From positions 22,294-86,293 of the forward strand of contig JACRCH010000016.1 in NCBI GenBank assembly GCA_016219115.1: a DNA stretch of 64,000 nt, given 5' to 3'. This DNA is from Deltaproteobacteria bacterium. Lineage in GTDB: Bacteria; Desulfobacterota; GWC2-55-46. The notes under the pieces are model-generated. The model saw only the letters and a list, made by a program, of their open reading frames with translations, made no database searches and was not told where the DNA came from. Shown in pieces: positions 8,268 to 64,000 of the stretch (position 1 is the first letter of the stretch; every line of letters begins with the position of its first letter). A program made the translations under genes and the position numbers.

Positions 8268-8289
8268 AGACGGAGCGCGCCGGCCTTCT

Positions 8290-9856: not shown

Positions 9857-9859
9857 TAT

Positions 9860-10065
9860 TTCCTTCTGGTTGAATGGGTGTACCACTCCGCAATCCCGTC
9901 GCTTTAGCGGCGGGTCAAGGCTGGCAAATATATATGATTTTTCCCTACCATCAAAATTCTCTGTCATTCATGGCGGAGAATTTTGATTAAGCGTTGCTTG
10001 CCGCGTATATAAAAACAGATCTCCCTTTGGGTACCCCGCTGGCAAGGCTTGCGGGGTGGTTCGTG
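9860..10065 (+). repeat. about 200-bp MITE-like intergenic element (family R3) ending in an R1 hairpin
   Basis: The sequence GTTGAATGGGTGTACCACTCCGCAATCCCGTCGCTTTAGCGGCGGGTCAAGGCTGGCAAAT...CATGGCGGAGAATTTTGATTAAGCG...GCCGCGTATATAAAAACAGAT is about 90% identical to 39692-39898 and, as an inverted partial copy, to 34095-34215. Confidence 0.75.
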
Positions 10066-10129
10066 TCCTTTCAGGGTTACTCTTATAAAGTTTTAAAAGT
10101 CCGGGGCTTCAGGAACGCTTCCTCCACGG

Positions 10130-10657
10130 TCACCTGGCCGACGACACCTCGTCGTTGCCAGCGAGCGCTATAAAGGACCTGAAGGTCTCTTCGGTCTCGA
10201 AGTAGTGTACCCTGCCGGAGGCGTCCGAGTATATGACGGAGTCGGCCTTGTCTATCGGCCTGTTTGTAAACGGGTCGGCGGCGCGCGTAAGGGAGTGGTT
10301 CTTCAAGAGCGTCTGGGCGTAACCGGCGCCCGTACCGTAGTAGGTCTTGCCGTCTATCTTTACCCCGTCCTGTTTCTTCTTCTCGCGCCTGTTGGTGACC
10401 ATGTTCACCTCATCCGGGCTCACACGCTTTAGCCATGCGGAGGCGGGACCGGCCTGAAGGTCCTTGGGGATACTGTTTTGGGTCTTGAGCGCTTCGCAGC
10501 GCTGGCTAGCCAGACGGCACTCCCTGATTGTATCGAGTTTTACCTGGGCCTGACCCCTGGTCCGGCTGGTGGCGCCGGAGACCGCGGGCGCCAGTGTCAT
10601 CGCAAACGCCGCGAGTGCCGATAAGACGATGGTCTTTCCGTAAAGATTTTTTTTCAT
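10130..10657 (-). CDS. hypothetical exported protein
   Basis: 175 aa with an N-terminal signal peptide (MKKNLYGKTIVLSALAAFAMTLAPAVSGA). No recognisable domain. Confidence 0.45.
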   Translation of the reverse strand: MKKNLYGKTIVLSALAAFAMTLAPAVSGATSRTRGQAQVKLDTIRECRLASQRCEALKTQNSIPKDLQAGPASAWLKRVSPDEVNMVTNRREKKKQDGVKIDGKTYYGTGAGYAQTLLKNHSLTRAADPFTNRPIDKADSVIYSDASGRVHYFETEETFRSFIALAGNDEVSSAR

Positions 10658-11337
10658 ACAACCCTCCTGTTAAGTAAAAATATTCCGTCCACATTGCGAA
10701 CAAGGTCAGTATTATACACAATTCCCGCCGTAAATCAAGCATATAAAAATAGCATCTATATGATTTGCAAGAGAATTTTCAGGGGTGTAGGATTTTTGAC
10801 GCTTTTTAAGGGTTTTTTGGGAAATTTCACAGGGTGAGAACGAGGGCAAAAGGAGCGCCGCCGCTGTCAATAAAACGCGGCAAACTCACCCCCTGGAAGG
10901 GGATGGCAGCATAGCAGCTTGAGGCATATCTCGACCTCTGCCCGTGCGTTCAAGTAACAGTCCGCCTCATCAACCTTGCGCCCGCAAAGACCGATACTCA
11001 CCGGTCCTTCACCGCCCTGAAGGCGTCCTTGACCGTCCCGTCATCGCCTATGCAGACTGGCAGCGGGGTCTCACCCGTCAGGGCCGTTACGGCAGGGATG
11101 AAAAAAAGATTAAAGAGAGATCGCGGCAAGCACCCGTTCAGTTATCAGAACTTTAATGCGTCCGTCATATTCCCGCAACATAGCCCCCGTAAAATAGTGC
11201 TGAATACATTGAAGCTCCCTCCTAGCCAAAGCCGCGGGAGGCAAAAACGGGCATGAAGCCGAAGAAAAAACATTTACGCACAGTCTCCGTATCCGGCCCG
11301 GAGAATTCAGTGGCTGACCGTCTGTCTCAAAAAGAAT

Positions 11338-11580
11338 TAACTTGGAATTCCCTGTAGCTTGCCCTTGTAAAACCCTCCCCCTTGATGGGGGAGGGGAGGG
11401 GTGAAAATAATCTTTCAGCCTTCGGAATTTCACCCTCCCCGCTTCCCGTTGCATCGGAAGAGCGCAACGGGGGCCCAGCCCTCCCATCAAGGGAGGGGGT
11501 ACTGGCGTACGGCGGATCGAGAACAACCTCTTTTTGTTCGTTTGATACCCCGAAGCTTGCCGCGGGGTGGTTCATTGCGA
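11338..11580. repeat. composite intergenic repeat (R2 G-rich palindromes plus R1 hairpin-GGTTCAT)
   Basis: AATTCCCTGTAGCTTGCCC...CCCTCCCCCTTGATGGGGGAGGGGAGGGGTGAAAA...TTTCACCCTCCCCGCTTCCCGTTGCATCGGAAGAGCGCAACGGG is almost identical to 33418-33600 and 43151-43330. Confidence 0.7.
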
Positions 11581-30736: not shown

Positions 30737-30860
30737 GCGTTTTAATCACAAAATTCCCTCTAGCTTGCCAGAGGGTTTCCTTGTAAAAACCCTCCCCCTC
30801 TATGGGGGAGGGGAGGTTTAAAGAGATACCCCGCGGCTTGGCTGGCAGGGAGATTCAATC
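30737..30860. repeat. composite intergenic repeat (leader + R2 + degenerate R1)
   Basis: TTTTAATCACAAAATTCCCTCTAGCTTGCCAGAGGG...CCCTCCCCCTCTATGGGGGAGGGGAGG...GATACCCCGCGG. Confidence 0.65.
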
Positions 30861-33325: not shown

Positions 33326-33417
33326 TCCTTCAAAACCGTCCTTTTAATAAGCCACCTCAAAACCGCTCACAAGTTTTTTTGCCCCTTGTCCGTCACGGAT
33401 ACTCCACCTGGTTCTTT

Positions 33418-33624
33418 AAATCACAAAATTCCCTGTAGTTTTCTACAGGGTTTACTTGTAAAATCCTCCCCCTCGATGGGGGAGGGAAGGGTGGGGGTGA
33501 AAACAGGTTTTCACCCTCCCCGCTTCCCGTTGCATCGGAAGAGCGCAACGGGAGCCCAGCCCTCGCAATCGAGGGAGGGCTGGGTTTAAGGAGATACCCC
33601 GGAGAAAAGCTCCGGGGTGGTTCA
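33418..33624. repeat. composite intergenic repeat (leader + R2 palindromes + R1 hairpin)
   Basis: Near-identical to 11338-11580 and 43151-43362. Confidence 0.75.
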
Positions 33625-33744
33625 TATCCTTCCGTTACAAGAGACATCCGGTCTAATCGCCCTTTAATCAGCGATAGGTATAATGGAGTCGTAAGAAAGG
33701 GATTTGAAAGACTTTAGAACGGAAACAGAAAAGGAGGCGGATAA

Positions 33745-34094: not shown

Positions 34095-34215
34095 ATTAAA
34101 ATTCTCCGCCATAAATGACGGAGAATTTTGATGGTATGGAAAGATCATTTGTATTTGCCAGCCTTGACCCGCCGCTAAAGCGACGGGATTGCGCAGTGGC
34201 ACACCCATTCAACAA
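34095..34215 (-). repeat. inverted partial copy of the R3 MITE-like element
   Basis: It is the reverse complement of GTTGAATGGGTGTGCCACTGCGCAATCCCGTCGCTTTAGCGGCGGGTCAAGGCTGGCAAAT...CCATCAAAATTCTCCGTCATTTATGGCGGAGAATTTT. Confidence 0.7.
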
Positions 34216-39132: not shown

Positions 39133-39691
39133 CAGACAGTCTTAAAAGACTTGCAGCGTAAGTATCTTCCTGAGCCCCCGTTCGGCCCGCGTTGCCAGTT
39201 TGAGACCCATGAAAAGTCCTTTTTTCCGTCATTGCGGGCGTGACGCCGCAATCCCGTTTTAAGGAAATCAGACGCCTGGAGATTGCCTCGTCGCTTACGC
39301 CCCTCGCAATGGCTACAAAAACAGGGTTTTTCAGCGTTCTCAAGTTGCGCCATCCTTGAGCGTCCGGGTTTTTTCAATGACCTCATCAGCGACCCTTTGC
39401 CGCACCCATCCGGTGAGGGCTCAAGGGTCTGTCTTTTTGACGGTCCGCCGCGCACCCGCGCCGGGGTCGAGTTCTGGCAATGGAATAACAGTATAAAAAG
39501 CACTTGGCTTGAGTCAGCCGGGTGCTTTTTTGTTTTTTGACCCTCCCGCAAGGCTTTCGTTCCATGGTTTTTGGCCTTCAGGGCGCTTTCCCTGCCTTGA
39601 CAAAATCCAAACAGGTGCTATCCTGCAATATATACGGCCCCGCATAGCTCAAGGGGCGTTCTTCACTCTACATAATCTAACCCTTTCATAT

Positions 39692-39898
39692 TTCCTCCGG
39701 GTTGAATGGGTGTGCCACTCCGCAATCCCGTCGCTTTAGCGGCGGGTCAAGGCTGGCAAATGCAAATGATCTTCCATACCATCAAAATTCTACGTCATTT
39801 ATGGCGGAGAATTTTAATTAAGCGCGGCTTGCCGCGTATATAAAAACAGATTTTCCAACGGAAACCCCGCTAGCCTTGCTAGCGGGGTGGTTCATAGC
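39692..39898 (+). repeat. R3 MITE-like element copy ending in an R1 hairpin
   Basis: About 90% identical to 9860-10065. Confidence 0.75.
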
Positions 39899-41206: not shown

Positions 41207-41345
41207 GCGTTTATGAGACACCCCGGAGCTTGGCTACCGGGGTGTCTCATAAAACCTACTCTCCCTTGAGGGGAGGGTGAAATGACCGGATGGTCAAAGA
41301 CTATTTTCACCCCCCTGCCCGCCTTCTTTCAGGGGGAGGGTTATG
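41207..41345. repeat. R1 hairpin plus partial R2 unit inside the hydrogenase operon spacer
   Basis: GACACCCCGGAGCTTGGCTACCGGGGTGTCTCAT followed by CTCCCTTGAGGGGAGGGTGAAA...TTTCACCCCCCTGCC...CAGGGGGAGGG. Confidence 0.6.
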
Positions 41346-41516
41346 TATGGACAAGCTACATGGAATTCCCGGATCGAAGAACCCCGCCATGAATGACGGG
41401 GGTTCTTCACGGTAAGGTGATTGTCATTTTTACAGCCCGCCTTGCCCCGCTTATAAAGCGGCGGGATCGCGGCGGGTACCCGTTCAATATCACATGACAA
41501 AAAGGAGTGTGAGGCG

Positions 41517-43136: not shown

Positions 43137-43150
43137 CTCCCTGAGTGACT

Positions 43151-43362
43151 TTTAATCACAAAATTCCCTGTAGCTTGCCGCAGGGTTTCCTTGTAAAATC
43201 CTCCCCCTTTATGGTGACGGGGGAGGGGGGGGGTGAAAAAATGTTTTCACCCTCCCCGCTTCCCGTTGTATCGGAAGAGCGCAACGGGAGCCCAGCCCTC
43301 CCATCAAGGGAGGGCTGGGCTTAAGGAGATACCCCGCTGGCAAGGCTAGCGGGGTGGTTCAT
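43151..43362. repeat. composite intergenic repeat (leader + R2 + R1) between the large-subunit and cytochrome b genes
   Basis: TTTTAATCACAAAATTCCCTGTAGCTTGCC...GGGGGAGGGGGGGGTGAAAAAATGTTTTCACCCTCCCCGCTTCCCGTTGTATCGGAAGAGCGCAACGGGAGCCCAGCCCTCCC...GATACCCCGCTGGCAAGGCTAGCGGGGTGGTTCAT. Confidence 0.75.
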
Positions 43363-50707: not shown

Positions 50708-51192
50708 AACAAACCGCGTGCAACAGATGCCCCCCGGGCATCTGTGAAGCGATTGCTTCTTTCTGAATAAACACCTCCGAACACCGCAACCGAATGTAAT
50801 GCTTCAAGCGTAATAGATATTTCCCGGAAAGTAACAGTCTATCAAACCGGGTGAAGTCCATCAACACGTCTAATTTCCTCAAAGATATTTTCGTCGGTGG
50901 CGTTGGCGGGTAAAAAATTAAGGTCGATTTTCATAGTTCCATAGGGTAGGCTGAGCCACCATGCCCTGCGCCCTGCCAGCCGTAACCAGCGAAAAAACCA
51001 ATAAAAACGCCCCACCGCGAACGGTGAGGCGTTAACAAGCCCAGACGTGGGTTCGTCTGAGCGTCCAGTCTGGCTCCCCGACTTTCCCATAATACTAACC
51101 GCAATAAGATAGCCGAGCCGGAAGTCTGGTTCCGCATCGTCCATGTAACTCCCGAAGATACCAATGATTTTTCCACTCACCAGGAACAGACC

Positions 51193-51642
51193 GTGGAAAT
51201 AGCCCTCGGCCCGAAGGTGGCGTTCGAAAACGGAAACATCGGGATCGTAAAACGGCGGGTGGCGCTTAACGGAGTGGTTAACGCCCTGCCGCGATCTGTG
51301 GTAAAGCTTAAGCCTCCGAAGACTCCGAGGGTGACGGAACTTCTACGGAAGGCGATGGAGTGGAAGGAACTTCTCGACGCAGGCGAGGTGCCTACCTTGG
51401 TTGAAATAGCTCGCCGAGAAGGCCTATCAAGGGCCAGAATCACTCAGATCATGAGCCTCTTGCGTCTGGCACCGGATATCCGGAACTATATCCTCTCGAT
51501 GCCTCGGGTCACTAAAAGGCCGGTGGTTACAGAGCGCTTGCTGCGCCCTATCGTAAGAGTTGAAAACCTGTTGGTGCAAGCAGAAAGGTTTCAGCAATTG
51601 CTGCGCCATAGAGGCAAGACATCAAACCTTTATCCCATGTGA
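51193..51642 (+). CDS. hypothetical protein with ParB-like HTH; possible mobile-element or partition remnant
   Basis: LVEIARREGLSRARITQIMSLLRLAPDIRNYIL resembles the ParB/Spo0J HTH (LSxxELAxxxGKSRSxVxNxLRLLxLP). There is no ParB nuclease N-terminal domain, the start is GTG, and the surrounding ORFs are fragmented. Confidence 0.3.
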   Translation: MEIALGPKVAFENGNIGIVKRRVALNGVVNALPRSVVKLKPPKTPRVTELLRKAMEWKELLDAGEVPTLVEIARREGLSRARITQIMSLLRLAPDIRNYILSMPRVTKRPVVTERLLRPIVRVENLLVQAERFQQLLRHRGKTSNLYPM

Positions 51643-51657
51643 CAATTCTTTTCTTTT

Positions 51658-52368
51658 TCATGAAACCGTGGATTGTCTAAGTATCTCCTCGACTTCCTCT
51701 GGGGAGAGGCTCAATTTGATTTCCTTGTTGTGCTTGTCGATATGCCCCACCTTTTTTCCGCCGAGCACCACATCCATACGCCATGTGCCGTGCTCGAAGT
51801 CTATATGAGGTTCAACTTCCATCTTCTGGACGATTTTGTTTTTTTCTTCCTCGGTCAGGTCGTAAATAGTGCCTTCTATTGCGGTAGGCACGTCAAGATA
51901 TCCCTTCGGGTCTTTACGGTATGCGTGGGCTTTGCCCTCCTTGCTCAAAATATCCGCTCTGCTCGCCTTCCATGGGCAGTCTATAACTTCAAAATGAAGG
52001 TGGCTTGGGTCCTTACCGGTTTTGCTGTAGGCATACCCGCTATGGCCGACCGTGCCGATAGTCTTTCCTTTTTTGACTATGTCTCCTACCCCCGCGCCTA
52101 TTGTGTTGAGATGCGCATACAGTGTATATATGTGGCGTTCGTTGTCCTTTGCCTTTGGGGCATGGTCAATGATCACGTGGTCCCCATAGCCGGGGACGTT
52201 GGCTTCCGAAGCTATAACGTCACCGCTTTCGCTCGCCTCAACAGGCGTGCCCTTTGGAGCGCCGTAGTCTATACCTTTGTGTTTTCTTCCCCCGGGCCTT
52301 GCCTCGTCGAATACTGAAGTGATATTGAAGCTGCCATGTACAGGCTCTTTAAATGTCAGTTCACCCAT
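51658..52368 (-). CDS. M23 family metallopeptidase (LytM-like) without signal peptide
   Basis: HKGIDYGAPKGTPVEASESGDVI and HSGYAYSKTGKDPSHLHFEV match the M23 HxxxD / HxH active-site motifs. It sits in a low-GC segment. Confidence 0.75.
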   Translation of the reverse strand: MGELTFKEPVHGSFNITSVFDEARPGGRKHKGIDYGAPKGTPVEASESGDVIASEANVPGYGDHVIIDHAPKAKDNERHIYTLYAHLNTIGAGVGDIVKKGKTIGTVGHSGYAYSKTGKDPSHLHFEVIDCPWKASRADILSKEGKAHAYRKDPKGYLDVPTAIEGTIYDLTEEEKNKIVQKMEVEPHIDFEHGTWRMDVVLGGKKVGHIDKHNKEIKLSLSPEEVEEILRQSTVS

Positions 52369-52425
52369 CGTCTTCCCCCTTCAAAAAACAGGAACGTACT
52401 CGGTTTAAATTGGCTTAAGACCTGG

Positions 52426-52959
52426 CTACTTGCAGAGATCAAGCAACCGTTTGGCGCGGACCATATTCCTGCGTAGTGCTTGCTCGCCCTCTTCAGTAAG
52501 CTCCCACGGCCTTGGATTCGAAACCTCGCTTTCGGCTTCTTTCAAGAATTCTTTCAACGCATAAAAAGCCTTCCTTTTTTCACCGCCAAGGAGATAAGCC
52601 CTTCCTAAAGGCAGAAGAACCTCATAACTTGAAACCTCATACCTTGTAACTTTGTATGCTTTTTTATAAAATCCGGCTGCATCAGCAAACCTCTTCTTTT
52701 TTTCTTCTTCAAGCCCTTTCAGCCAAAGTCCATAGAAATCAATATCTCCCTGAGCCCATGGTGCATCTTTATTCCTTCCAACTAACTCCAGGTTTTCTTT
52801 GACAAGTAAGGATTCTTCATAGATGGCCCTGAGAATATCTTGTCCGTCTTCAGGAGGCACATAGGACTTAGCGCATCCCAGAGGTCCAAAAAACAAGAAG
52901 AGTGACCACAAGGATATACAAAGAGAAATTAACGCAGGATTTTTGCACGCCTTATTCAT
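52426..52959 (-). CDS. hypothetical lipoprotein
   Basis: A signal peptide with a lipobox (LFLFFGPLGCAKS). Helical and TPR-like, with no catalytic motifs. It lies immediately downstream of the M23 peptidase gene on the same strand. Confidence 0.4.
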   Translation of the reverse strand: MNKACKNPALISLCISLWSLFLFFGPLGCAKSYVPPEDGQDILRAIYEESLLVKENLELVGRNKDAPWAQGDIDFYGLWLKGLEEEKKKRFADAAGFYKKAYKVTRYEVSSYEVLLPLGRAYLLGGEKRKAFYALKEFLKEAESEVSNPRPWELTEEGEQALRRNMVRAKRLLDLCK

Positions 52960-53066
52960 CTGTTTTACCTTTTCCCGCCGAATACGGAGCTGACATAGCT
53001 GCCTGTCAGCCGTATAAACGTCAACTCTCCCATTTGTCTTCCTCTTTTTGTGCAGTTTGGTATAAA

Positions 53067-53780
53067 TCAGTCTATTACATTTGGCCCACATTTTACCGTG
53101 CCGCTGGAGAGGTCTTCATGAAATTTCCACTCCCCTTTTTCCAACTTCAAGATCACAGGATATGTCATATCGGACGTTTTGGGACAAAGCTTCCTGTCTG
53201 AACGGGTGTACTTGTCAAGCAGTACGGTCTGGCTGTCCTTCCACTCGATAAATCGGTACAATGCGTATTCATTTACTGGAGGGTCAAAGGGCCTGTACGA
53301 GAGCTCCGGCACAATTCCATCGTCCTCAAAACGGTCTACAAAAACCCCGTTTTCGTTATAGCCGGAATCGTTTGCCGAGACTGAGACAAAACGTTTTCTG
53401 TCGGGTGAAAACTCCGGGAAGGCTGGCACCATATACTTCTCTCCGCTTTTATCGGATATCATCGAATACTCAAAACCTTCATAGTAGCCAATGAAAACAA
53501 GATAAAACCCGATATCCTTGTAGTAATCAACGAACTGATACAACGCACATGTTTCCCCTCTTGTGCAATCACTTGAATCAGAAAGGGTAACAAAAGAGCC
53601 GGACTTCAAGCGAAGGCGCAGCACATTGCCGTCTCTTTTGACATATGGCGCAAACTTCTTTAACTGTTCTTGTTCCTTAGCGCTTATGTCCTCGATAAGC
53701 TCTGCTTCTGACGGTAGCGCATGAACAAACGTCAGCAAAAAAAGTATAGTTGCAGAAAATAAAAAAATGCTCTTTTTCAT
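53067..53780 (-). CDS. hypothetical exported protein
   Basis: A signal peptide (MKKSIFLFSATILFLLTFVHALPSEA). 237 aa, low GC. Confidence 0.45.
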   Translation of the reverse strand: MKKSIFLFSATILFLLTFVHALPSEAELIEDISAKEQEQLKKFAPYVKRDGNVLRLRLKSGSFVTLSDSSDCTRGETCALYQFVDYYKDIGFYLVFIGYYEGFEYSMISDKSGEKYMVPAFPEFSPDRKRFVSVSANDSGYNENGVFVDRFEDDGIVPELSYRPFDPPVNEYALYRFIEWKDSQTVLLDKYTRSDRKLCPKTSDMTYPVILKLEKGEWKFHEDLSSGTVKCGPNVID

Positions 53781-54134
53781 TCAAAAGCTCCATTTGGTAT
53801 GATTGCCATGCAACCGCGTAGTCTTGCCTTTACCTCATGAGCCGAAGTTCAGTTCTTGTGCCGCTCCCGATTATAACAAGAGGGGACGTATGTGCAAAGC
53901 GCATATACGATAGTGTATTTTTTCTACCCCTGATTTTGCATCTAGGCTGTTTTAAAGCAAAATAGGGCGGAAATTATTCTACCCCGAAGCCTACTCGGTT
54001 TTAAAGGAGCTTGTACGATTTTACCAGAAATGAGTTTTCGGAGGAACATTGAAGTCAGCGGTTCGTATACCGGGTAATTCATTTTTGCGCGCTAACCAAA
54101 ATTCGACTTTAAGACCTGAATTCACCTTAAAATA

Positions 54135-54166
54135 AAGGGGGTTGCGACACTTACCGCAACCCCCTA
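54135..54166 (-). terminator. rho-independent terminator directly 3' of the tRNA fragment
   Basis: The minus strand reads GGGGGTTGCG-GTAAGTGT-CGCAACCCCC followed by TTTATTTTAAGG. Confidence 0.45.
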
Positions 54167-54178
54167 CAAATCTGGCTC

Positions 54179-54226
54179 CCAGGGAGGGATTCGAACCCCC
54201 GACCCGGTGGTTAACAGTCTGAAACT
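54179..54226 (-). tRNA. tRNA 3'-half fragment (T-arm + acceptor 3' strand + CCA); no 5' half present
   Basis: The minus strand reads ...CACCGGGTCGGGGGTTCGAATCCCTCCCTGGGAGCCA, with a GGTTCGAATCC T-loop and a CCA end. No complementary 5' acceptor strand is found upstream. Confidence 0.4.
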
Positions 54227-55023
54227 TTAAAAATTTGTAACTGAGCCTTCTGCCTGCACTTTTAAGAAAAAAACGAATTTTCAAACATTTGCGCCATTAT
54301 GTCCTTTGCGGCATTTTCCGTCCCTTAAGACCGATTCGGACGCTTTCGGCTACGTTTTGGTTACGTTGACAACTATTCGGAGTTAAGTAAGGGCCGTCCA
54401 TTCCTGCTGCAAAATACGCTGTCTCATCACTTATTGCTCCACTCCCCCCAACTGATATCGACAGAGCGTACTCCTTGCCGTCCATTATGTAACCACTCAC
54501 TTTAATTTATCGACTCGTCAGGGGTGCTGCAAGTCAGGGTTATACATTCTGATGGGTTAGAAATTCATTCGAGAGGGGTCATGGGTTTGCTTTGCCAAAT
54601 GGCAGCGTGACGTCAGTAAGCGTCCCGGTGACCTTTAATGCTCTGAATTTTGGCGGGTACTGGATTGAATACGTTCAAAATGATGAAACCAAAATGGGGA
54701 AGAAAAGTTCGATATATGTTCCTAATTATCGCATGGCACTGCTACGAGGCAACCCCTGGAAAATCAATGGACTCAAACCTGAACCAGCTTCTGCTGGTTC
54801 TTAGTTAATGGGAAACCAATGTTTTCAAGATAACCTGTCCTAAAGTACAGGTTCAAAAAACAGGAGTTTATATTATAAAATGACGATACTACCTCTAATA
54901 AATTTCGAAAAATAGTGTATATTTGCAGTTTGCATGATATGTCTGTTTATAAAGTGATAGAGTTTCTCTTACACAGAAAATTTCACCGGCGACATTGAAA
55001 AATAAACCGTATCTATGGTGTGA

Positions 55024-56928
55024 TTGATGGCACAGAAAGCTTCATGGCGTGAAATTAATATTGTATTAGCAATACTAGTTATAATCACCGTCTTCACCGC
55101 GCTCCCTGCCAATGCCGACAGCACCTTAAACCCTGAGGTACTAAAAGAGTCCGCTACCCTGCCATCAGTCAAAAGTCCCATCGGGGCTGCCCACCGCAAG
55201 GCCCTCAAGGCATATCAGACTACAAAAGACCCGAAGCATTCTATCAAGATACTGGAAGACGCAGGGGTAGCCGGACTTGCCGGCAAGGACCCTGAAACAG
55301 CCTCTCTTACAAAGGGTCAATATGCCGCCGTGCTCAACGACTACGCCTATTTTCTTTATCTTGCAGGGCAGAAGACAAGGGCTCTTCCCATACTTAACAG
55401 GGTCATAGAGGTCGACCCCGAAAGGGTGGCCGCATATCTAAACCGGGGCGATATCTATGGGGAGGTATACGGCAGGACAAAAGACATCCGCGACAAGGAA
55501 CTGTATGTAGCCGACTACAGGGCCTACAACGAGCGGATGATAAGGGATAAGAAGTCCTTCCTCGTCCCAGAGCGTGTAGAGCGGGGGCTTTATGCCCTTG
55601 AGATAAAACAACCGCCCGTGGAAAAGGAAAAGAGGCGGGAGTTGGAGGAGAAGCTCTACGAGGCCGCCAAGATGAACAACATCGAAGAGGTTGTAAGGCT
55701 TCTGAAGGAAGGAGCAGACCCTAACGCAGGAGCCTATGTTGCGCCCCTGCGTTACTCTGACAACGATGTGCTTCTCTACCAGAGCAAAAGCTACGAAACA
55801 CCGCTGGACTTTGCGGCCTTACAGAACAATATCGAGATGGCGAAGTACCTTATCTATAACGGCGCCACGGTGCATATGAGGTCTCTACAACGCAACACCC
55901 CCCTGCACTATGCCGCGTGTGGGGGAGACCTTGAAATGGTTAAGTACCTCTTGGGGAAAGGCGCCATATACGACTACCCGAACAACAACTCCTTTATGCC
56001 TGTCGGTTGGGCCATCGGCTGCAAGGACGGAGAGCATGAGGAGGAAGTCTTCGACTTCCTCCTGAGCATAAATAACGGAAGGTATATAAACGGGGCGACC
56101 TTAGACGAGATAATAAAGAATGCCGGGGGTCTTAAGGACAGGGAGAGGGGCCTGCGGGTAGTGCGCGACATTTTCACAAGGTTCAGGAAGCGCATTTCAA
56201 CAAAGGCCCTTGGTGAGAGTTATGTAAAAGCCGTGATGACTGACAACAGGAAGCTTGTCGATTTTTACAGAAAAAATAAAGTCAAGATAGATACTGACGA
56301 GTACATAGGGGCCCTTATAAGGGGGAAGAAGTTCGATGAGGCGAAGAAGGTTATTGAGTCGGCTAAGAAGCTCGGGAGAGAGACTTTTTCGAGTATAAGC
56401 TTAATACCTGTCTACAAAACAGATTGGAAGTGCGAGCGTGGGCAGGAGAGGTATGAAGGTAATGAGGTGGAGGAGTTATTGCTGCCTGCCATAAAGGCAT
56501 ACAATCTGAGTAAGCCTACGGAGTCTAACAACCATGACCTTATCTTTTCCCGGTTTTTAGACCAGCTCAGCTCTTATTCTTTCAAATATCCACTATGTTT
56601 TAATAAGGCGAGGACAATTAAAGTTGTCCGGTTGATGCTGGAAAATGGACTTAATCCAGCATTCCTCAATTCGGGATTCCATTATATTGTCGCACTCAAT
56701 GATCTTGAACTGGCAAAAGAGGTGCTTGAAAAAATAAGTGTTGATGAAAAAATTTGTTATTATTTATTTGCTAATGCAAGGTCGATGGAGATGGTCAGGT
56801 TTCTGGAGTCTCATGGATTCAGCCTTTCCAATGAAGAGTACAAGAGACTTGTCGAACATATGGAGAAAAAAACTTTCCCAGATACAGACCGGAGCGTTAT
56901 CGTGCATTATAAAACAAAAATCAAATAG
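55024..56928 (+). CDS. exported ankyrin-repeat / TPR-repeat protein
   Basis: A signal peptide (ILVIITVFTALPANA), TPR-like helices, then at least 3 ankyrin repeats (TPLDFAALQNNIEMAKYLIYNGATVH..RNTPLHYAACGGDLEMVKYLLGKGA). Confidence 0.75.
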   Translation: MMAQKASWREINIVLAILVIITVFTALPANADSTLNPEVLKESATLPSVKSPIGAAHRKALKAYQTTKDPKHSIKILEDAGVAGLAGKDPETASLTKGQYAAVLNDYAYFLYLAGQKTRALPILNRVIEVDPERVAAYLNRGDIYGEVYGRTKDIRDKELYVADYRAYNERMIRDKKSFLVPERVERGLYALEIKQPPVEKEKRRELEEKLYEAAKMNNIEEVVRLLKEGADPNAGAYVAPLRYSDNDVLLYQSKSYETPLDFAALQNNIEMAKYLIYNGATVHMRSLQRNTPLHYAACGGDLEMVKYLLGKGAIYDYPNNNSFMPVGWAIGCKDGEHEEEVFDFLLSINNGRYINGATLDEIIKNAGGLKDRERGLRVVRDIFTRFRKRISTKALGESYVKAVMTDNRKLVDFYRKNKVKIDTDEYIGALIRGKKFDEAKKVIESAKKLGRETFSSISLIPVYKTDWKCERGQERYEGNEVEELLLPAIKAYNLSKPTESNNHDLIFSRFLDQLSSYSFKYPLCFNKARTIKVVRLMLENGLNPAFLNSGFHYIVALNDLELAKEVLEKISVDEKICYYLFANARSMEMVRFLESHGFSLSNEEYKRLVEHMEKKTFPDTDRSVIVHYKTKIK

Positions 56929-56939
56929 GGAGGTAGAAC

Positions 56940-59900
56940 ATGGCGGTATTTAATACAACACAGCAAGAGACGGACTTCAAGAATCTGCTTCGGGAGGTTT
57001 ACTTACGGAATGAAGCACAACCTAATGAGTGGTATGTATTTACAAGTAATGCGGGTACGGGCACTAGCGGCTGGAGCTTCGGCCCGGCGCAGTGGGATGT
57101 GAGAAATAATCCTTCGGTCGCTATACCTATTTTAGATAAGATGAAAGATAGTAATGGAGTAAAATTATTTAGTGATACTGATATTAGTAAATTAAGAGGC
57201 TCTGAAAACATTACTGCTTCTGACCTGGAAAGATATAACGCTATACTTAATGCTAATCAGGTGTTGATTAATGCAGAATTTGAGCAGCATCTTAATAACG
57301 ATGTTGCTCTCATTGAAAACCTTGTTTCAGAACTTAGCGCATCAGGCAATCAACAGACGGCCGATTATATAACAAGCAACAAACTGGCACAAGTGATGTT
57401 GGTGGATTACAATAATCAATTCAAGATCAGTGGGGTTGACAGCAACGGAACAGTTAACGGTGCCAATGACGGCAAGATGATGAAATTTTTAAAAGGTCTT
57501 CAGGTTGATGATTACGGCGGTGGAAAGATGGATACGGGCCCAAGCTTTGATGTGACGGACATTATGAAGTTCTTAACAGGGACTAAATGGGCTTACAATT
57601 ATGAAAACGATGGTCAGGGTCCAAGAGATATATATAGAAGGCTTACAAACATCAGGGATACAGTCGGATCATTTTTAACAGATGCGGAACGTCAACTGAT
57701 AAATACTTTTTTAGGTATTCAAAGGCTCGGTTTGCTGGGTGATGCTATTCATGATGCTTGGCTGAACTATTTTAATACGGCAAAGACGGTAATAGTCACT
57801 CCAAGTTCGCATTGTCCACTAATTTTTGATTTGGATGGAGACGGCGTTGAGACAACGAATGTCAAGGCTGGCTATTATTTTGACCATGATGGTGATGGTT
57901 TCGCCCAACAGACCGGGTGGGCCGGACAGGATGATGGCGTACTGTTTAGAGACCTTAATGGAAACGGACTTATTGATAACGGAGCAGAATTGTTCGGGAA
58001 TGAAACTATCCTAACAAGCGGTGCAAAGGCGGCCAATGGATTTTTGGCGCTGGCTGAACTGGACAACAATGCTGACGGCAAGATAGACTCGAATGATACC
58101 GCATGGGGTGAGCTGAAAATATGGCAAGATAACAACAACGATGGATATACCACGGTTGATGAGATGCTTACGCTTGATGCATTAGGCATTCAGTCGATAA
58201 ATACCGGCTACACTACATCAGCCATGGTCGATACCCAGGGCAATGAACATCGTCAAACAGGCAGTTTTACTAAGACGGACGGAACAACAGGAACGGTTTC
58301 TGATGTGTGGTTCCGGACTGATAACGCATTTGCAATGGCAAAAGAATGGCTTGATGTGCCTCAGGATATTGCCGCCCTGCCTGATTTGAAGGGTGGCGGA
58401 ACTGTCTATGATTTGCACCAAGCGATGGTACGCGATACGAGCGGAGCATTGAAAACACTGGTTCAGAGTTTTATTGCCGAGGCTGATCCCATTATACGCG
58501 GCAATTTGATGGAGCAGATACTTATAAAGTGGACCGGAAGCGATGATATCGACCCTAATAGCAGGGGGCAATGGATTGATGCACGAAATTTGAGTGCCCT
58601 AGAGAAATTATTCAACAACCAATTTGTAGATATTAACGGCAATACAGACCCCAATACTATGAATGCGATCCTATTAAGGCAAGCGTTTCAGGGAGTGGTT
58701 GAAAAAAATTACGCACAGTTAATTGCCCAGACTCATATTCAAAACCTTGTCAATATGATCACATATTCCTGGGATGCTACTGCATCGGACCTTAAGGGTG
58801 ACTTGAGTGCTGTACAAACAGAAATACAGACCCAAATTAATACAAACTATGATACGGGCAAGCAGTTCCTTTCCGAATTCTCTCGAATTCTGAAAGGACT
58901 TAACGCAGAAGGAATAACAGACTTCACAAATTTCAGAGATTATTTTGCGTCTCAGAGTGAAGATTTGGCGTGGACAATCGATGCCGCAGGAAAATATTTA
59001 ATAAGCGGAACAGCCGGTAACGATGCTTTCAATGCAGCAGATATTAATAGCGCTTTGACCGGAGGTGACGGGAATGACACTTTATCTGGGCTAGATGGAA
59101 ACGATACGATATACGGGAATGCCGGTGTAGACTATTTAAACGGAGGCAACGGGGATGATTTGATTGCTGGTGGGGCCGGCAATGACTTCTTATACGGAGA
59201 GACCGGCAATGATACCCTTTACGGGGGCGATGGGAACGACAATATAGATGGCGGCGATGGCTCTGATTTTCTTTATGGTGGAGCTGGAGACGATTATATC
59301 GCTGGCGGAGCCGGCAGCGATACCTATCTATTCAACCTTGGAGACGGTCAAGACACCATAAGCGAGGGTGACTGGCCGGGGATTGATATAGACGTGCTCA
59401 GGTTCGGGAGTGGCATAACGAGTGCGGATCTTCTTATCGGAAGAGATATGAACAATCTTTACAACCTTACGGTCGGTATAAGCGGTACCTCTGACAAGAT
59501 CACGGTGGAGAACTGGTACGGTGACAATGCTTACAAGCTTGAGCGTTTCGACTTTGCCAACGGTACAAGCCTTACGGGAGCCGAGGTAGAGGCGATGGCA
59601 GTTATAAGGGGGACTGCCGGTGATGACTGGATTTATGGTAGTCCCGAGAATGAGAAATTCGAGGGTGGTTTAGGCAACGACTATATCTCAGGCGATGGGG
59701 GAAATGATACATACCTCTTCCAGCGTGGAGGCGGGCAGGATACTATAACTGATTATGACACGATAGTAGGCAATACGGATGTTGTCCAGTTCGACGTTAA
59801 TCCCCTTGATTTGATCTTTTCCCAATCAGGCAATAACCTCAGCCTCTCGATAAGTGGCTCTTCCGACAGTCTTAACGTGCAGAACTGGTATTCAGGCATA

Positions 59901-60089
59901 GATAACCAAACCGAGATATTTAAGGCTGCGGATGGAAGTCAGCTTCTGAGTACTCAAGTCGACCAGCTTGTCCAGGCCATGGCGTCGTTCTGCTCCAGCA
60001 ACGGTATAAGCTGGGAGCAGGCGATACAAACCAACCCACAAGATGTCCAGCAGATACTCGCTCAGAATTGGAGTCAACCTCAACCATAA
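56940..60089 (+). CDS. large RTX-family calcium-binding repeat protein (type I secretion substrate)
   Basis: Tandem GGxGxDxUx nonapeptides (GGDGNDTLSGLDGNDTIYGNAGVDYLNGGNGDDLIAGGAGNDFLYGETGNDTLYGGDGND...). Two HCBP-related modules (ITVENWYGDN...ERFDFANGTSL; LNVQNWYSG...IFKAADGSQL). An N-terminal acidic DxDGDG domain. No N-terminal signal peptide, consistent with a C-terminal secretion signal. Confidence 0.85.
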   Translation: MAVFNTTQQETDFKNLLREVYLRNEAQPNEWYVFTSNAGTGTSGWSFGPAQWDVRNNPSVAIPILDKMKDSNGVKLFSDTDISKLRGSENITASDLERYNAILNANQVLINAEFEQHLNNDVALIENLVSELSASGNQQTADYITSNKLAQVMLVDYNNQFKISGVDSNGTVNGANDGKMMKFLKGLQVDDYGGGKMDTGPSFDVTDIMKFLTGTKWAYNYENDGQGPRDIYRRLTNIRDTVGSFLTDAERQLINTFLGIQRLGLLGDAIHDAWLNYFNTAKTVIVTPSSHCPLIFDLDGDGVETTNVKAGYYFDHDGDGFAQQTGWAGQDDGVLFRDLNGNGLIDNGAELFGNETILTSGAKAANGFLALAELDNNADGKIDSNDTAWGELKIWQDNNNDGYTTVDEMLTLDALGIQSINTGYTTSAMVDTQGNEHRQTGSFTKTDGTTGTVSDVWFRTDNAFAMAKEWLDVPQDIAALPDLKGGGTVYDLHQAMVRDTSGALKTLVQSFIAEADPIIRGNLMEQILIKWTGSDDIDPNSRGQWIDARNLSALEKLFNNQFVDINGNTDPNTMNAILLRQAFQGVVEKNYAQLIAQTHIQNLVNMITYSWDATASDLKGDLSAVQTEIQTQINTNYDTGKQFLSEFSRILKGLNAEGITDFTNFRDYFASQSEDLAWTIDAAGKYLISGTAGNDAFNAADINSALTGGDGNDTLSGLDGNDTIYGNAGVDYLNGGNGDDLIAGGAGNDFLYGETGNDTLYGGDGNDNIDGGDGSDFLYGGAGDDYIAGGAGSDTYLFNLGDGQDTISEGDWPGIDIDVLRFGSGITSADLLIGRDMNNLYNLTVGISGTSDKITVENWYGDNAYKLERFDFANGTSLTGAEVEAMAVIRGTAGDDWIYGSPENEKFEGGLGNDYISGDGGNDTYLFQRGGGQDTITDYDTIVGNTDVVQFDVNPLDLIFSQSGNNLSLSISGSSDSLNVQNWYSGIDNQTEIFKAADGSQLLSTQVDQLVQAMASFCSSNGISWEQAIQTNPQDVQQILAQNWSQPQP

Positions 60090-60235
60090 CGAGTTTTTGT
60101 TATATGTTTTTGTGTAGCTTCCAGTTAATTTCACTCATCCCTATCAATACACATGGGGAGAGGATTGAAACACCACATTGAAGAATAGTATCGTTATTAA
60201 AGGTCGTATTTTATGGAAAGCGCGCAAGAGGTTAT

Positions 60236-62392
60236 GTGGACACGGAACAGCAAAAGGATGCCGGCGGTGACCATAAGAAGATAGATAGCGGTTTACACTG
60301 CCTTGTAACGATAGCGAAGTTTCATGGTGTTGCCGCAGATCCTGCCCAGATAAAACACACCTTTGCCATCGGATCGGATGGCATGAGTACCATTGATATA
60401 TTAAGAGCCTCCAGAGAATTAGGATTCAAGTCAAAAGCAGCAATAGTAAGATACGAAAGGCTACAAAGACTCCCGCTTCCAGCGATTGTAGAGGCTGAAG
60501 GCGGTGGGTATTTTATTCTTGCCAAAGTTGAAGGCGAGCAATTACTTGCCTTGAATCCTTTGGAAGGCAAGCCTAAGATTTTAAAAAAAGAAGAATTCTT
60601 AAGAGCATGGAAAGGCGGGATAATTCTTTTATCATATAGAGGTTCAGGATTTTTGTATTCAGAGGAAATCTTTGGGCTCAAATGGTTCATTCCCGCGATA
60701 TGGAAATACAGAAGAGCACTCAGAGACGTGTTGATTGCCTCTTTTGTACTTCAGATTTTTGCCCTTATCACTCCCATATTCACCCAAGTCATAATCGATA
60801 AAGTCCTTGTCCATAACGGTGTAACTACACTTGACGTCCTTGCCATTGGGTTAATAACGATTGCCCTCTTTGAGGCAATTCTGAATATTTTGAGGACATT
60901 CGTTTTCACCCATACCACAAGCCAGATAGATGTCACGCTTGGTGCGAAGCTGTTCAAACATCTAATGGCGCTACCTCTCAGATATTTTGAGGTTCGGAGA
61001 GTGGGAGATACCGTTGCCAGGGTACGGGAGCTTGAGAACATAAGGCAATTCCTTACGGGTGCGCCGCTTACGTCCATTCTGGATGTAATGTTCATAGCCG
61101 TGTTTGTGATAGTAATGTTTTTCTACAGTGCAACTTTATCACTGGTTGCCTTGGCGGCGCTCCCTTTTTTTGCTCTGCTATCAGCGATTGTCACTCCCAT
61201 GCTACGACACAGACTTGACGAGAGGTTCAACAGAGGCGCAGACGCACAGTCGTATCTGGTTGAAGCAGTTAACGGAATACAAACGGTAAAATCGTTTGCA
61301 CTTGAGCCTGAGGCTCAGAAAAAATGGGAAAGTCTTCTTGCAAATTACATCAAAGCAAGCTTTAAGACATACCAGTTGTCTGGCATTGCAGGAGGCATCG
61401 GGCAACTGATACAAAAATTATCTTATCTTGTTATTCTATGGGTAGGAGCGAAGCTAGTAATGGATGGGCAATTGACCGTCGGGCAGTTGATCGCCTTTCA
61501 GATGTTGTCGGGAAGAGTCAGCGACCCAGTACTAAGGCTTGTTCAAATGTGGCAGGAGTTCCAGCAAGCTGGTCTTTCCATAAGAAGGCTTGGCGACATA
61601 TTTAATACTAAGCCGGAACCGGCGATTGCCGCTACTAAAATGAGACTTCCATCCATCAAGGGAAGTGTCAGGCTTGAAGGGGTTAGGTTCAGGTATCGTA
61701 TCGACGGCTCTGAGGTGCTTAGGAACATTTCGCTTCATGTTGAACCTGGGACAACCATAGGGATTGTCGGAAGAAGCGGATCGGGGAAGAGCACTATCGC
61801 CAAGCTCATACAGAGACTCTACCTTCCAGAATCAGGCAAAATACTTATTGATGGTGTAGACATATCACTTGCGGACCCTGCTTGGCTTAGACGTCAGATA
61901 GGTGTTGTGCTGCAGGAAAACTATCTTTTTAATAGCAGCGTAAGAGATAATATTGCGATTCATTATCCTTCCGCGCAGATGGAAGAGATCATCAGGGCCG
62001 CACAGCTTGCCGGTGCCCATGAGTTTATCCTTGAACTTCCGGAAGGATACGACACCACAGTAGGAGAAAAAGGTACTGCTCTTTCGGGTGGGCAGAGACA
62101 GAGGGTTGCCATTGCGAGGGCGCTTCTTATGAATCCACGAATTCTTATATTCGACGAAGCAACCTCGGCGCTGGATTACGAGTCTGAAAGTATAATTCAG
62201 AGTAATCTTAAAAGAATATGCCATGGTAGGACCGTAATAATAATAGCACACAGGCTTTCCACTTTAAGGAACGCGGATAAAACAATAATGATAGACAGAG
62301 GTGAACTCATAGAATCTGGAAGTCATGAAGAATTAATTTCCAGGAAAGGACTATATTGCCATCTCTATAGCCAGCAGGAAAGGCATGTGTAA
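60236..62392 (+). CDS. type I secretion system ABC transporter (HlyB family) with N-terminal C39-like domain lacking the catalytic Cys
   Basis: A C39-like domain (DSGLHCLVTIAKFHG, Cys to Ser at the catalytic position), six TM helices, Walker A (GRSGSGKST), signature ([14 protein letters not shown]) and Walker B (ILIFDEATS). Confidence 0.9.
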   Translation: MDTEQQKDAGGDHKKIDSGLHCLVTIAKFHGVAADPAQIKHTFAIGSDGMSTIDILRASRELGFKSKAAIVRYERLQRLPLPAIVEAEGGGYFILAKVEGEQLLALNPLEGKPKILKKEEFLRAWKGGIILLSYRGSGFLYSEEIFGLKWFIPAIWKYRRALRDVLIASFVLQIFALITPIFTQVIIDKVLVHNGVTTLDVLAIGLITIALFEAILNILRTFVFTHTTSQIDVTLGAKLFKHLMALPLRYFEVRRVGDTVARVRELENIRQFLTGAPLTSILDVMFIAVFVIVMFFYSATLSLVALAALPFFALLSAIVTPMLRHRLDERFNRGADAQSYLVEAVNGIQTVKSFALEPEAQKKWESLLANYIKASFKTYQLSGIAGGIGQLIQKLSYLVILWVGAKLVMDGQLTVGQLIAFQMLSGRVSDPVLRLVQMWQEFQQAGLSIRRLGDIFNTKPEPAIAATKMRLPSIKGSVRLEGVRFRYRIDGSEVLRNISLHVEPGTTIGIVGRSGSGKSTIAKLIQRLYLPESGKILIDGVDISLADPAWLRRQIGVVLQENYLFNSSVRDNIAIHYPSAQMEEIIRAAQLAGAHEFILELPEGYDTTVGEKGTALSGGQRQRVAIARALLMNPRILIFDEATSALDYESESIIQSNLKRICHGRTVIIIAHRLSTLRNADKTIMIDRGELIESGSHEELISRKGLYCHLYSQQERHV

Positions 62393-62470
62393 ATGGTTGC
62401 ATTTGAATATTCTGAATTCTATTATTCGATTTTTTCGCCCTCTTGATTACGGCTTATTAGAGGTGTTGCT

Positions 62471-63799
62471 ATGATAGAATGGCTTAAAAAGGCATTAAGA
62501 AAGGATAAGCTTGAATATGAGTTCTTGCCTCCAGTCCTTGAAATAATCGAGACCCCGCCATCTCCATTTAAAAGCCTATTGATCTGGGTTGTTTTTTTAA
62601 TGGTTCTCATAGCCTTTGCTTGGGCCTATTTCGGTACGGTTGACGAAGTGGCTACGGCCAGAGGAAGAGTAATACCTGATGGAAGATTAAAGGTAGTACA
62701 GCCTATAGAAGCGGGCGTAATCAGGGGCATACATGTTCGGGAGGGACAGAGTGTTAAGGAAGGAGATGTGCTAATTGAACTTGACCCAACGATAAAGCTC
62801 GCAGATGTTGAAAGTAACGAAAAATCACTTTCAATTCATCAGGTGGACAGAGAAAGGCTTTTGGCAGAACTCCGAAGCGGCAATATGATTATCAAGGGAA
62901 GAGGAGAATTATTTGAATTACAGAAAAAATTAAAGGATGCAAGGGAGTCTGAATACAATGCAAGGGAAGAAGCAATTAAGTCTGTCATTGCTCAAAAGGA
63001 CAATGAGATTCGGGCTTCAGAGGCTATATTGGTGAAGCTGGAAAAAACATATTTGATTTTAAAAGAGCAGGAGAGTTCCCTTAGGAGCCTTTTCGAGCAG
63101 GGTTATCTTACCAAAAAGGATCTACTCGACAAACAGTTGCAGTTGTATGCATCTGAGCAGGAAGCTGAGGCGCAGAAAAAGACGGTACTGCAGGTGAGGG
63201 AAGGGTTGAATGAAAAAAAGATGAATCTCGATGCGCTCAAAAAAGAACGGGAGAAAGTGATACTCAACGATATTGTGGATAGTGAAAAGACAATTGCTCC
63301 GATAGAGGGAGAGGTAAGGAAGGCACGGAGAAAATATGAACTTGAAAGACTGAGTTCTCCGGTAGATGGTACTGTCCACGGTATTTCCGCGCATACAATT
63401 GGAGGAGTTGTAACGCCGGCACAGCCCGTTGTCACCGTTGTCCCGGTAGGAACACCTCTTATAGTTGAGGCAACAGCGCTTAACAGGGACATCGGATTTT
63501 TAGAAGTCGGACAGGAAGTAAATATCAAATTCGATACCTTTCCATTTCAGAAGTACGGCACTATTCAAGGAAAGGTTGTATGGATAAGCCCTGATTCCTT
63601 TGATGATGAAAAGCTTGGCCCTATTTACAAGATGAAGGTTGAGATGGAAAAGCGGAGTATGAATATTGACAATAGGGTTGCGTCAATCACGCCAGGGATG
63701 ACCGTATCCGTTGATGTTAAGACTGGTAAAAGGCGCGTAATAGAATTTTTCCTCTCACCTATAGTAAAATACACAAAAGAGAGTCTCATACTTAGATAA
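62471..63799 (+). CDS. type I secretion periplasmic adaptor (HlyD family)
   Basis: An N-terminal TM, the HlyD motif (TARGRVIPDGRLKVVQPIEAGVIRGIHVREGQSVKEGDVLIELDP), a long coiled-coil and a C-terminal beta domain. Confidence 0.9.
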   Translation: MIEWLKKALRKDKLEYEFLPPVLEIIETPPSPFKSLLIWVVFLMVLIAFAWAYFGTVDEVATARGRVIPDGRLKVVQPIEAGVIRGIHVREGQSVKEGDVLIELDPTIKLADVESNEKSLSIHQVDRERLLAELRSGNMIIKGRGELFELQKKLKDARESEYNAREEAIKSVIAQKDNEIRASEAILVKLEKTYLILKEQESSLRSLFEQGYLTKKDLLDKQLQLYASEQEAEAQKKTVLQVREGLNEKKMNLDALKKEREKVILNDIVDSEKTIAPIEGEVRKARRKYELERLSSPVDGTVHGISAHTIGGVVTPAQPVVTVVPVGTPLIVEATALNRDIGFLEVGQEVNIKFDTFPFQKYGTIQGKVVWISPDSFDDEKLGPIYKMKVEMEKRSMNIDNRVASITPGMTVSVDVKTGKRRVIEFFLSPIVKYTKESLILR

Positions 63800-64000
63800 C
63801 ACCGCCAATACGGCAACTGGTAGGGCGACAGCTTGGTGTCCAAGAAAAGTCTGGTTGCACTCAATTTTCTGGTAGAATGCAAGAGCAGGCCTCTGACGCT
63901 TGTCAAGCTAAATACTAAATCCGCCAAGGCTACATATAAGGCAGCTGTGAAGAGGCTAAAGGGCCTAACAGCAAGGGGCAGAAGGACCTTGTCCATGGGG

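Follow-up and report, generated by a model that had tools for sequence, protein, structure and literature searches.

Probable stacking of integrative elements at a deltaproteobacterial tRNA-Asn gene, read from an orphan 3' fragment and a second, shorter scar

Here we examine a 64,000-nucleotide stretch of DNA from a Deltaproteobacteria bacterium (GenBank assembly GCA_016219115.1, contig JACRCH010000016.1, positions 22,294 to 86,293 of the forward strand; hereafter the window), in which the 3' part of a tRNA-Asn(GUU) gene lies on the minus strand, separated from any 5' half. To its right, toward higher coordinates, lie a short arm of element-type DNA and a run of genes for a type I secretion system and an RTX protein, which we refer to as island Y, the secretion genes being its presumed cargo. 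To its left lie a hairpin, a 3.1-kb insert (X) that ends in a ParB-type helix-turn-helix (HTH) gene, a second and much shorter scar of the tRNA-Asn 3' end, and a trailer with a predicted intrinsic terminator (coordinates in Table 1). We consider it likely that the tRNA-Asn(GUU) gene has been targeted repeatedly by integrative elements, and that the window holds the distal part of the resulting stack.

The fragment, read on the minus strand from 54217 to 54173, is CTGTTAACCACCGGGTCGGGGGTTCGAATCCCTCCCTGGGAGCCA, and these 45 nt map to canonical tRNA numbering without a gap: C32-U33-GUU-A37-A38, the 3' anticodon stem CCACC, the variable loop GGGTC, a T arm of GGGGG/TTCGAAT/CCCTC, the 3' acceptor strand CCTGGGA, the discriminator G, and CCA. 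A preliminary description of the window had recognized the T arm, acceptor strand and CCA, all of which are present, and had drawn the fragment too short, as the anticodon loop with the Asn anticodon GTT, the anticodon stem and the variable loop are there as well. That no complete tRNA is involved, as the same description held, is confirmed: ARAGORN called zero tRNAs in the whole window, Rfam gave zero matches in the window at gathering score and chance-level matches only around the fragment at a relaxed threshold, the 31 nt 5' of the fragment did not align with the tRNA-Asn 5' half, and the fragment folded with its upstream sequence did not form a cloverleaf (z-score -0.55). Because no program called it, no 5' half precedes it and no cloverleaf forms, 54173-54217 is a true orphan fragment and not an overlooked tRNA. 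The window contains the 45-mer a single time, against 0 times in 100 shuffles; no second copy of it, or of a 25-mer, was found in the window with up to 3 mismatches, and blastn-short of the whole tRNA against the window returned chance 11-nt matches only.

Genome and metagenome collections were scanned for exact copies of the 45-mer, which were found at 13 loci, all of Deltaproteobacteria/Thermodesulfobacteriota type where the record names the organism. Nine of these (L002-L007, L009, L013 and L014) are complete tRNA-Asn(GUU) genes, three (L008, L010 and L011) are orphan fragments, and one copy (L012) is cut at a contig end; two loci fetched later (L015 and L018) add further complete genes carrying the 45-mer, and the fragment is identical (45/45) to positions 32-76 in 12 complete tRNA-Asn genes. 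L006 has, in addition to its complete gene, a degenerate second copy of positions 32-76 located 1.5 kb downstream, the two enclosing a mini-islet in the order tRNA-Asn, integrase remnant, ATPase, arm, degenerate fragment. Every orphan copy (window, L008, L010/L011, the degenerate copy of L006, and a tRNA-Arg fragment in L018 described below) starts at C32 in the anticodon loop, and the 3' flanks of the orphan fragments differ from contig to contig. In L008, the fragment is followed on its 3' side by a terminator and cytochrome oxidase genes, and has the arm on its 5' side. Since this 3' flank consists of core genes, the inserted DNA lies 5' of the fragment, which in the window is the higher-coordinate side, where the preliminary description had also placed it.

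The sequence immediately 5' of the fragment has relatives in other contigs. Window positions 54218-54442 align with L008 positions 1-226 at 77.7% identity over 220 aligned bases, and at ~87% in the 170 nt nearest the fragment. A motif in this arm (AGTTACAAATTTTTAA at window 54227-54242; AGTTATGATTTTTTAA in its L010/L011 version) lies at a fixed distance from the core and, in the form AGTTAyrrwTTTTTAr, is common to the window, L010/L011 and the tRNA-Arg island of L018. Tandem 11-mers (GTAACCAAAAC/GTAGCCGAAAG) are found at window 54344-54365 and tandem 11-mers are also present in L010/L011, and L006 aligns only loosely in this region. The motif and the tandem 11-mers are candidate sites for integration host factor or for arm-type integrase binding. 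The independent Logan assembly of SRR12113407, a sample that contains the secretion block with 100% identity, breaks at window 54342, at the tandem 11-mers of the arm, and again 450 nt past the window end, which suggests that sequences common to other elements or strains of SRR12113407 sit at both breaks.

In L002, L004 and L012, a tyrosine integrase (Phage_integrase, SAM-like and Int_N domains) comes at most a few bases beyond the 3' end of the complete tRNA-Asn gene. The three integrases are 70-82% identical to one another, and their family has 3,419 matches at E<=1e-30. L015 has the order cargo, HTH_17 excisionase-like gene, integrase, tRNA-Asn, followed by mfd, surA and pdxA. At a different tRNA, L018 holds a complete island in the order tRNA-Arg(ACG), integrase (65% identical to that of L004), HTH_17 gene, and CopCD plus ZnuABC cargo, with a 45-nt repeat of tRNA-Arg positions 32-76 located ~10.9 kb from the gene and preceded by the Y-arm motif. 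Because orphan copies share the C32 start, their arms are related, integrases abut complete tRNA-Asn genes, and L018 repeats the same 45-nt geometry, the window fragment is best read as the distal junction of an anticodon-loop-class integrative element that points right, toward the type I secretion genes. The attachment-site scar proposed in the preliminary description is thereby upheld, through the displaced tRNA 3' part itself and through the same-base breaks and related 5' arms in other contigs. Neither the 45-mer nor relatives of the integrase were found in viral contigs, and there is therefore no evidence that the element is of phage nature.

Several further observations concern these integrases and their targets. 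In L018, the displaced tRNA-Arg fragment is followed by an element-type hairpin, which suggests that this site, too, was occupied earlier, and a second island, at tRNA-Asn, faces the tRNA-Arg island from 7 kb away. The open reading frames (ORFs) of the L004 tyrosine integrase (1122-2303) and of a large serine recombinase in L003 (2067-3623) both traverse the reverse-complemented 3' part of the tRNA, in different frames (...MAPREGFEPPTRWLTA... and ...IWLPGRDSNPRPGG with a stop), the L004 ORF continuing through its hairpin into the tRNA-derived core. Since the tRNA 3' part is read through in both, the C-terminal tails of these proteins must differ between the integrated and the excised state. 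A third type of scar consists of 19-nt copies of tRNA-Asn positions 58-76 (T loop to CCA) in L007, L008 and L009, each located 160-270 nt downstream of the preceding tRNA or fragment and thus delimiting very short tandem islets; these copies suggest that a T-loop-class integrase may also target tRNA-Asn.

The guanine-plus-cytosine (GC) content of the window is 0.566 in positions 1-50973, 0.470 in 51079-54172, and 0.448 in 54218-64000, and its fall starts between 51.1 and 52.4 kb, with the lower-GC stretch beginning near 51.1-51.6 kb. The fall consequently begins at the short scar and not at the 45-nt fragment. As 3.1 kb of low-GC DNA (51079-54172) extends beyond the fragment, the foreign DNA does not end at the fragment, its outer boundary being located at ~51078. 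The preliminary description was correct that GC is lower to the right, and set the boundary 3 kb too far in that direction (54.2 kb, not 51 kb); its proposal that the fragment bounds the island does not hold, given the low-GC DNA to the left and the second scar at 51067-51078.

The second scar was recognized through L014, a metagenome contig in which a complete tRNA-Asn gene is followed by a 68-nt trailer ending in a terminator. Window positions 51003-51078 (minus strand) match, at 98.7% identity, the final 8 nt of this tRNA together with the trailer, and positions 50974-51077 are 86.8% identical to L017 13576-13680, the likeness ending at the same core. This core, GGGAGCCAGACT, consists of the last 8 nt of the tRNA, GGGAGCCA (51078-51071), and 4 nt of trailer. 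RNA from 50990-51078 folds at -41 kcal/mol (z -4.8), and, on comparison with L014, 50974-51066 is best called the native trailer and terminator of tRNA-Asn. Because an L014-type trailer sits behind the second scar near 51 kb, the hairpin next to the 45-nt fragment (-22.8 kcal/mol, z -5.0) is not the native terminator that the preliminary description took it for: it resembles the L014 trailer at chance level (z -0.1), as against z 1.7-4.4 for element modules. An alignment with the integrase-proximal ends of L004 and L015 (89-92% over 64 nt, 45-mer included) extends 18-19 nt past the CCA of the fragment, and that the hairpin was brought by an earlier element is moderately supported. Both 54136-54165 and 51006-51033 are predicted intrinsic terminators, each having a GC-rich hairpin and then a T-run, in the same (minus) orientation as the RNA gene that precedes it.

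Insert X occupies the DNA between the two scars. Its proteins were screened with Pfam, PHROGs, PADLOC and NCBIfam; the last three yielded no more than a domain of M23 peptidases and a weak match to a ParB HTH. The cargo of X (51658-53780) has a GC content of 0.454, vs 0.566 for the core, and no similarity to it was found in any of the fetched loci. The ParB-type gene at its left end, annotated as ORF 51193-51642, is identical to NCBI protein P0121 ('hypothetical protein HY889_01600'), matches PHROG 14161 and, weakly, TIGR00180, and has a homolog in L005 that matches Pfam HTH_ParB. Homologs of ~180-195 amino acids cover 93-97% of an extended frame, 51082-51642, that runs back to the scar, and no start codon (ATG/GTG/TTG) was found between the scar and 51193. 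The N-termini of the homologs (MAPQ... or ...LAPR...) correspond to the reverse complement of the tRNA 3' end, ...GGGAGCCA(T), the first codons ATG GCT CCC being the reverse complement of ...GGGAGCCA plus one base.

Junctions at this core come in four combinations. L014 has tRNA, core and trailer (B-O-B', attB-like); the window has the ParB-type side, core and L014-type trailer (P-O-B', hybrid); L017 has the ParB-type side, core and the 3' end of a serine recombinase gene (P-O-P', attP-like or tandem); and L010/L011 have the 45-nt tRNA fragment, core and an L017-type serine recombinase 3' end (B-O-P', hybrid). The common core is 8 bp in every junction and 12 bp in the set of window, L014, L017 and L010/L011, so that the short core is found across attB-like, attP-like and hybrid junctions, which come from different genomes and not from one excision event. 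The junction of a ParB-type gene with GGGAGCCA recurs in L017, L019 and L020/L021, with a different sequence on the other side each time. Because the ParB-type gene meets this core in four further contigs, next to four different trailers, the core is a live crossover site rather than a random deletion endpoint, and an origin of the 8-nt scar by random deletion truncating the ParB-type gene was rejected on the same recurrence. Conserved core synteny was likewise considered for the ParB-type gene of L005 and rejected, as that gene lies inside an insert.

Serine recombinases are associated with this core. The complete tRNA-Asn gene of L003 is adjoined by a large serine recombinase that is itself complete (Resolvase, Recombinase and Zn_ribbon_recom domains), and serine recombinase remnants are located at the core in L010/L011 and L017. 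These arrangements indicate that a second recombination system acts at the extreme 3' end of tRNA-Asn, one that is probably serine-recombinase based. More tentatively, and with somewhat less than even confidence, the tRNA-Asn 3' end (core GGGAGCCA, 8-12 bp) may be a genuine attB for large-serine-recombinase elements in this deltaproteobacterial clade, whose far end would be a ParB-type gene and which would deliver small defence cassettes, often in tandem (DISARM-like sets, Mrr/Vsr, PLD-helicase and toxin-antitoxin pairs); on this view, window positions 51067-54172 would be a cassette of this kind that a tyrosine-integrase island subsequently covered. Defence-type cassettes headed by a ParB-type gene lie at L020 4716-6698 (also in L021 and L022), L019 10001-20495 and L005 2784-8000. 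In L020, two tandem cassettes adjoin Wadjet-like genes; one carries an MNT/HepT toxin-antitoxin pair, the other Vsr together with an Mrr-helicase. The ParB-type gene of L019 is followed by a DISARM-like set (PLDc_2, helicase and DrmE_C), and the L005 cassette has a PLD-helicase-DUF3427 gene.

On the right of the fragment, the first two genes beyond the arm (window 55024-60089) encode a 634-amino-acid tetratricopeptide (TPR)/ankyrin-repeat protein and a 1049-amino-acid RTX protein, the latter with HemolysinCabind and HCBP_related domains and a precomputed SPM-domain match. In a deltaproteobacterium that lives freely, it is unusual to find an ankyrin protein beside a type I secretion system. The GC content of the block is 0.452, and the nearest relatives of its HlyD protein, its own copy aside, are 64% identical and come mostly from Nitrospirota metagenome-assembled genomes. 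From its position, its uniformly low GC without an intervening junction, and the distance of these HlyD relatives, we infer that the type I secretion block is cargo of Y. Logan contig L001 (10,109 nt) covers window positions 54342-64450, and its right end includes a terminator and the first part of another gene; no tRNA was found in 54218-64450, i.e., to the window end and 450 nt beyond. An intact tRNA-Asn gene and an integrase would be expected beyond 64 kb, because in relatives the tyrosine integrases abut complete tRNA-Asn genes.

Read along the minus strand, the proposed stack would begin with the intact tRNA-Asn gene, probably with an integrase, beyond 64 kb, followed by island Y with its presumed secretion genes, the Y arm (54442-54218), for which homology was found, and the observed 45-nt fragment (54217-54173). 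It would continue with the older insert X (54172-51079), at whose start lies the hairpin (54165-54136) with its moderately supported element origin, and end with the 12-nt core (51078-51067) and the true trailer and terminator (51066-50974), both established by comparison. X would have entered before Y, through a crossover within GGGAGCCAGACT at the 3' extremity of the tRNA gene, most likely moved by a large serine recombinase like those abutting the core in L003, L010/L011 and L017, and its distal end would be the ParB-type HTH gene. X may have been one recombinase-less cassette with the hairpin as its proximal end, in which case L005 (tRNA-Asn, hairpin, cargo, ParB-type gene) may be an analogue of the state before Y; alternatively, two elements may have decayed to leave what is now X. 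Y would then have entered through a heterobivalent tyrosine integrase of the L002/L004/L012/L015 family, which would recombine an attP carrying tRNA positions 32-76 with the chromosomal gene. With the crossover in the anticodon loop, the copy on the element would complete the gene and the old 3' part would be shifted to the far end as an unexpressed relic.

Some results weigh against this reconstruction. The intact tRNA-Asn gene, the Y integrase and the matching direct repeat would all lie outside the DNA covered, which reaches 64450, and no integrase or serine recombinase was detectable by tblastn in the 64-kb window, 54218-64000 included; no Resolvase, Recombinase and Zn_ribbon_recom gene is present at either end of X. 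None of the 120 best integrase homologs is placed on the source contig of the window, and the integrase of Y, if it is of the L004-type family, is probably off this contig, or else more divergent. None of the other fetched islands carries a counterpart of the presumed Y cargo, whose membership is taken from position and composition only. The likeness of the 54136-54165 hairpin to element-borne hairpins is modest, as terminators tend to look alike, and a sensitive tblastn search to the left of this hairpin gave only 27-28 integrase codons, covering the hairpin and the tRNA part. Finally, no single locus was found with a serine recombinase at one end and a ParB-type gene at the other, the link between the two being drawn from the common core and the L017 junction.

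That no integrase lies in the 9.8 kb next to the junction or in the rest of the window, and no close homolog (best 120) on its contig, would also fit Y being the stub of a deleted or decayed element, with the secretion block acquired independently or a resident low-GC locus, no integrase or intact tRNA just beyond, and the functional tRNA-Asn elsewhere. Mini-islets with deleted interiors exist (L006), and decay is common at this locus, as seen in the integrase remnants of L005 and L006 and the truncated serine recombinase of L010/L011. We nevertheless regard a stub as unlikely: GC is uniformly low from the arm to the window end, with no high-GC core segment or second junction between, no other tRNA lies in 54218-64450, and in this architecture (L018 and L015) a far-end integrase, in an island tens of kb long, is the usual arrangement. 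Even less probable is a single island in the tRNA gene, whose fragment keeps its native terminator and marks the outer boundary of foreign DNA. Fragment, hairpin and lower GC to the right are all real, as this account needs, but it is contradicted by the junction of a second tRNA-Asn 3'-end scar to an L014-type trailer (51003-51078), and it leaves unexplained the 3.1 kb of low-GC DNA past the fragment and a hairpin unlike that trailer. The lack of a nearby recombinase in the window could further point to a tRNA pseudogene produced by ordinary deletion or rearrangement, without site-specific recombination. This is very improbable, as independent contigs break at the identical base C32 with homologous arm DNA adjoining, the 45-nt geometry is repeated in a complete tRNA-Arg island with a related integrase, and descent of these arms from one deletion event is excluded by the differing 3' flanks.

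On the reading we favour, the fragment is in well-known company. In islands found by the Islander program, the attP carries a 3' fragment of the tRNA gene (tDNA), and integration restores the gene, while the fragment it displaces comes to lie at the opposite end of the island in the orientation of the gene. More of these islands (2083 of 3919) have an anticodon-centred site than a site of any other class, and 125 cases of tandem arrays are known (PMC4383910). The sublocation classes are those of Williams 2002, as cited in Hudson, Lau and Williams 2015 (PMC4383910). The window carries the same signature in the identity of its tDNA fragment, a reproducible anticodon-loop crossover and element-specific arm DNA. 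Like those islands, its 45-nt repeat starts in the anticodon loop, and related integrases adjoin a regenerated tRNA and an HTH_17 excisionase-like gene; unlike them, the window shows a distal junction only, the host is an uncultured deltaproteobacterium, and the integrase ORF of L004 traverses a hairpin into the tRNA-derived core.

Asn tRNA genes are occupied by islands in other bacteria as well. The high-pathogenicity island of Yersinia and the pks island sit at asn tRNA genes, and a study of Klebsiella pneumoniae reportedly describes asn tDNAs as island hot spots. These hot spots of the Enterobacteriaceae resemble the present locus in the isoacceptor, in receiving different islands, and in direct repeats derived from the tRNA 3' end, but the tRNA sequence and hosts are unrelated, and the likeness is one of target choice only. 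For the second system, the closest parallel considered here is the integrative and conjugative elements at rumA in Streptococcus, which are moved by a large serine recombinase and have short direct repeats of 2-21 bp, one of them inside the 3' end of the recombinase gene (PMC4701971). Alike are the short common core (8-12 bp here) and a recombinase gene whose 3' end adjoins the core, so that its C-terminal tail changes on integration, whereas the present locus is targeted at a tRNA 3' end and the window has no serine recombinase. According to a 2015 statement by the Islander authors, tRNA genes were not among the known targets of serine integrases (PMC4383910).

A displaced tRNA fragment at an island end is a textbook signature, used by programs such as Islander, and the fragment described here is an ordinary member of this class of scar, with no new mechanism and little importance in itself. 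For annotation, the type I secretion/RTX locus is probably within horizontally acquired DNA, the boundary between chromosome and island moves to ~51078, and a hairpin beside a tRNA fragment is not safely assumed to be native. The locus also serves as a clean stratigraphic example, in which recombination appears to have struck one tRNA gene at two positions in succession, its last 8-12 nt and its anticodon loop. The sole part that might be new is the ParB-ended cassettes at a short core, which may be moved by serine recombinases and carry defence genes.

Table 1. Features of the window and of related loci; positions are those of the window unless a locus is named.
Feature	Position	Strand	Basis or remark
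Native tRNA-Asn trailer and predicted intrinsic terminator	50974-51066	minus	stem-loop 51006-51033 plus T-run
Second, short tRNA-Asn scar, core GGGAGCCAGACT	51067-51078	minus	four-way junction comparison
ParB-type HTH gene, distal end gene of X	51082-51642 (extended frame); annotated ORF 51193-51642	plus	5' end adjoins short core
X cargo: M23 peptidase; two proteins without family match	51658-52368; 52426-53091, 53067-53780	minus	
Predicted hairpin terminator, probably element-derived	54136-54165	minus	13-bp stem plus T-run
Orphan tRNA-Asn(GUU) 3' fragment, positions 32-76	54173-54217	minus	displaced half; putative attR-type distal junction of island Y
Island Y terminal arm	54218-54442	minus	homology to DNA 5' of the L008 orphan fragment
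Presumed Y cargo: Ank/TPR protein, RTX calcium-binding protein, C39-peptidase ABC exporter, HlyD adaptor	55024-63799	plus	Pfam, gene calls on Logan contig
Repeat family A	9852-10062, 39684-39893, 34095-34213		
Repeat family B	11344-11497, 30740-30816, 33414-33625, 43149-43362, 41270-41369		
19-nt T-loop scars	L007 3962-3980; L008 429-447; L009 2241-2259, 1970-1988		
Complete 10.9-kb tRNA-Arg(ACG) island	L018 ~265-11195		ENA ERZ25039477 contig_85443 = CAVSHY010000027.1

The high-GC part of the window contains, in addition, two families of intergenic repeats of 75-215 nt that are 78-97% identical (families A and B in Table 1). No Rfam family matched either at gathering score. Family B carries palindromes of G-runs and C-runs (CCCTCCCCC...GGGGGAGGG), and related copies of the repeats are present in other deltaproteobacterial loci from metagenome-assembled genomes (L002 3747-4226 and L008 6356-6458).

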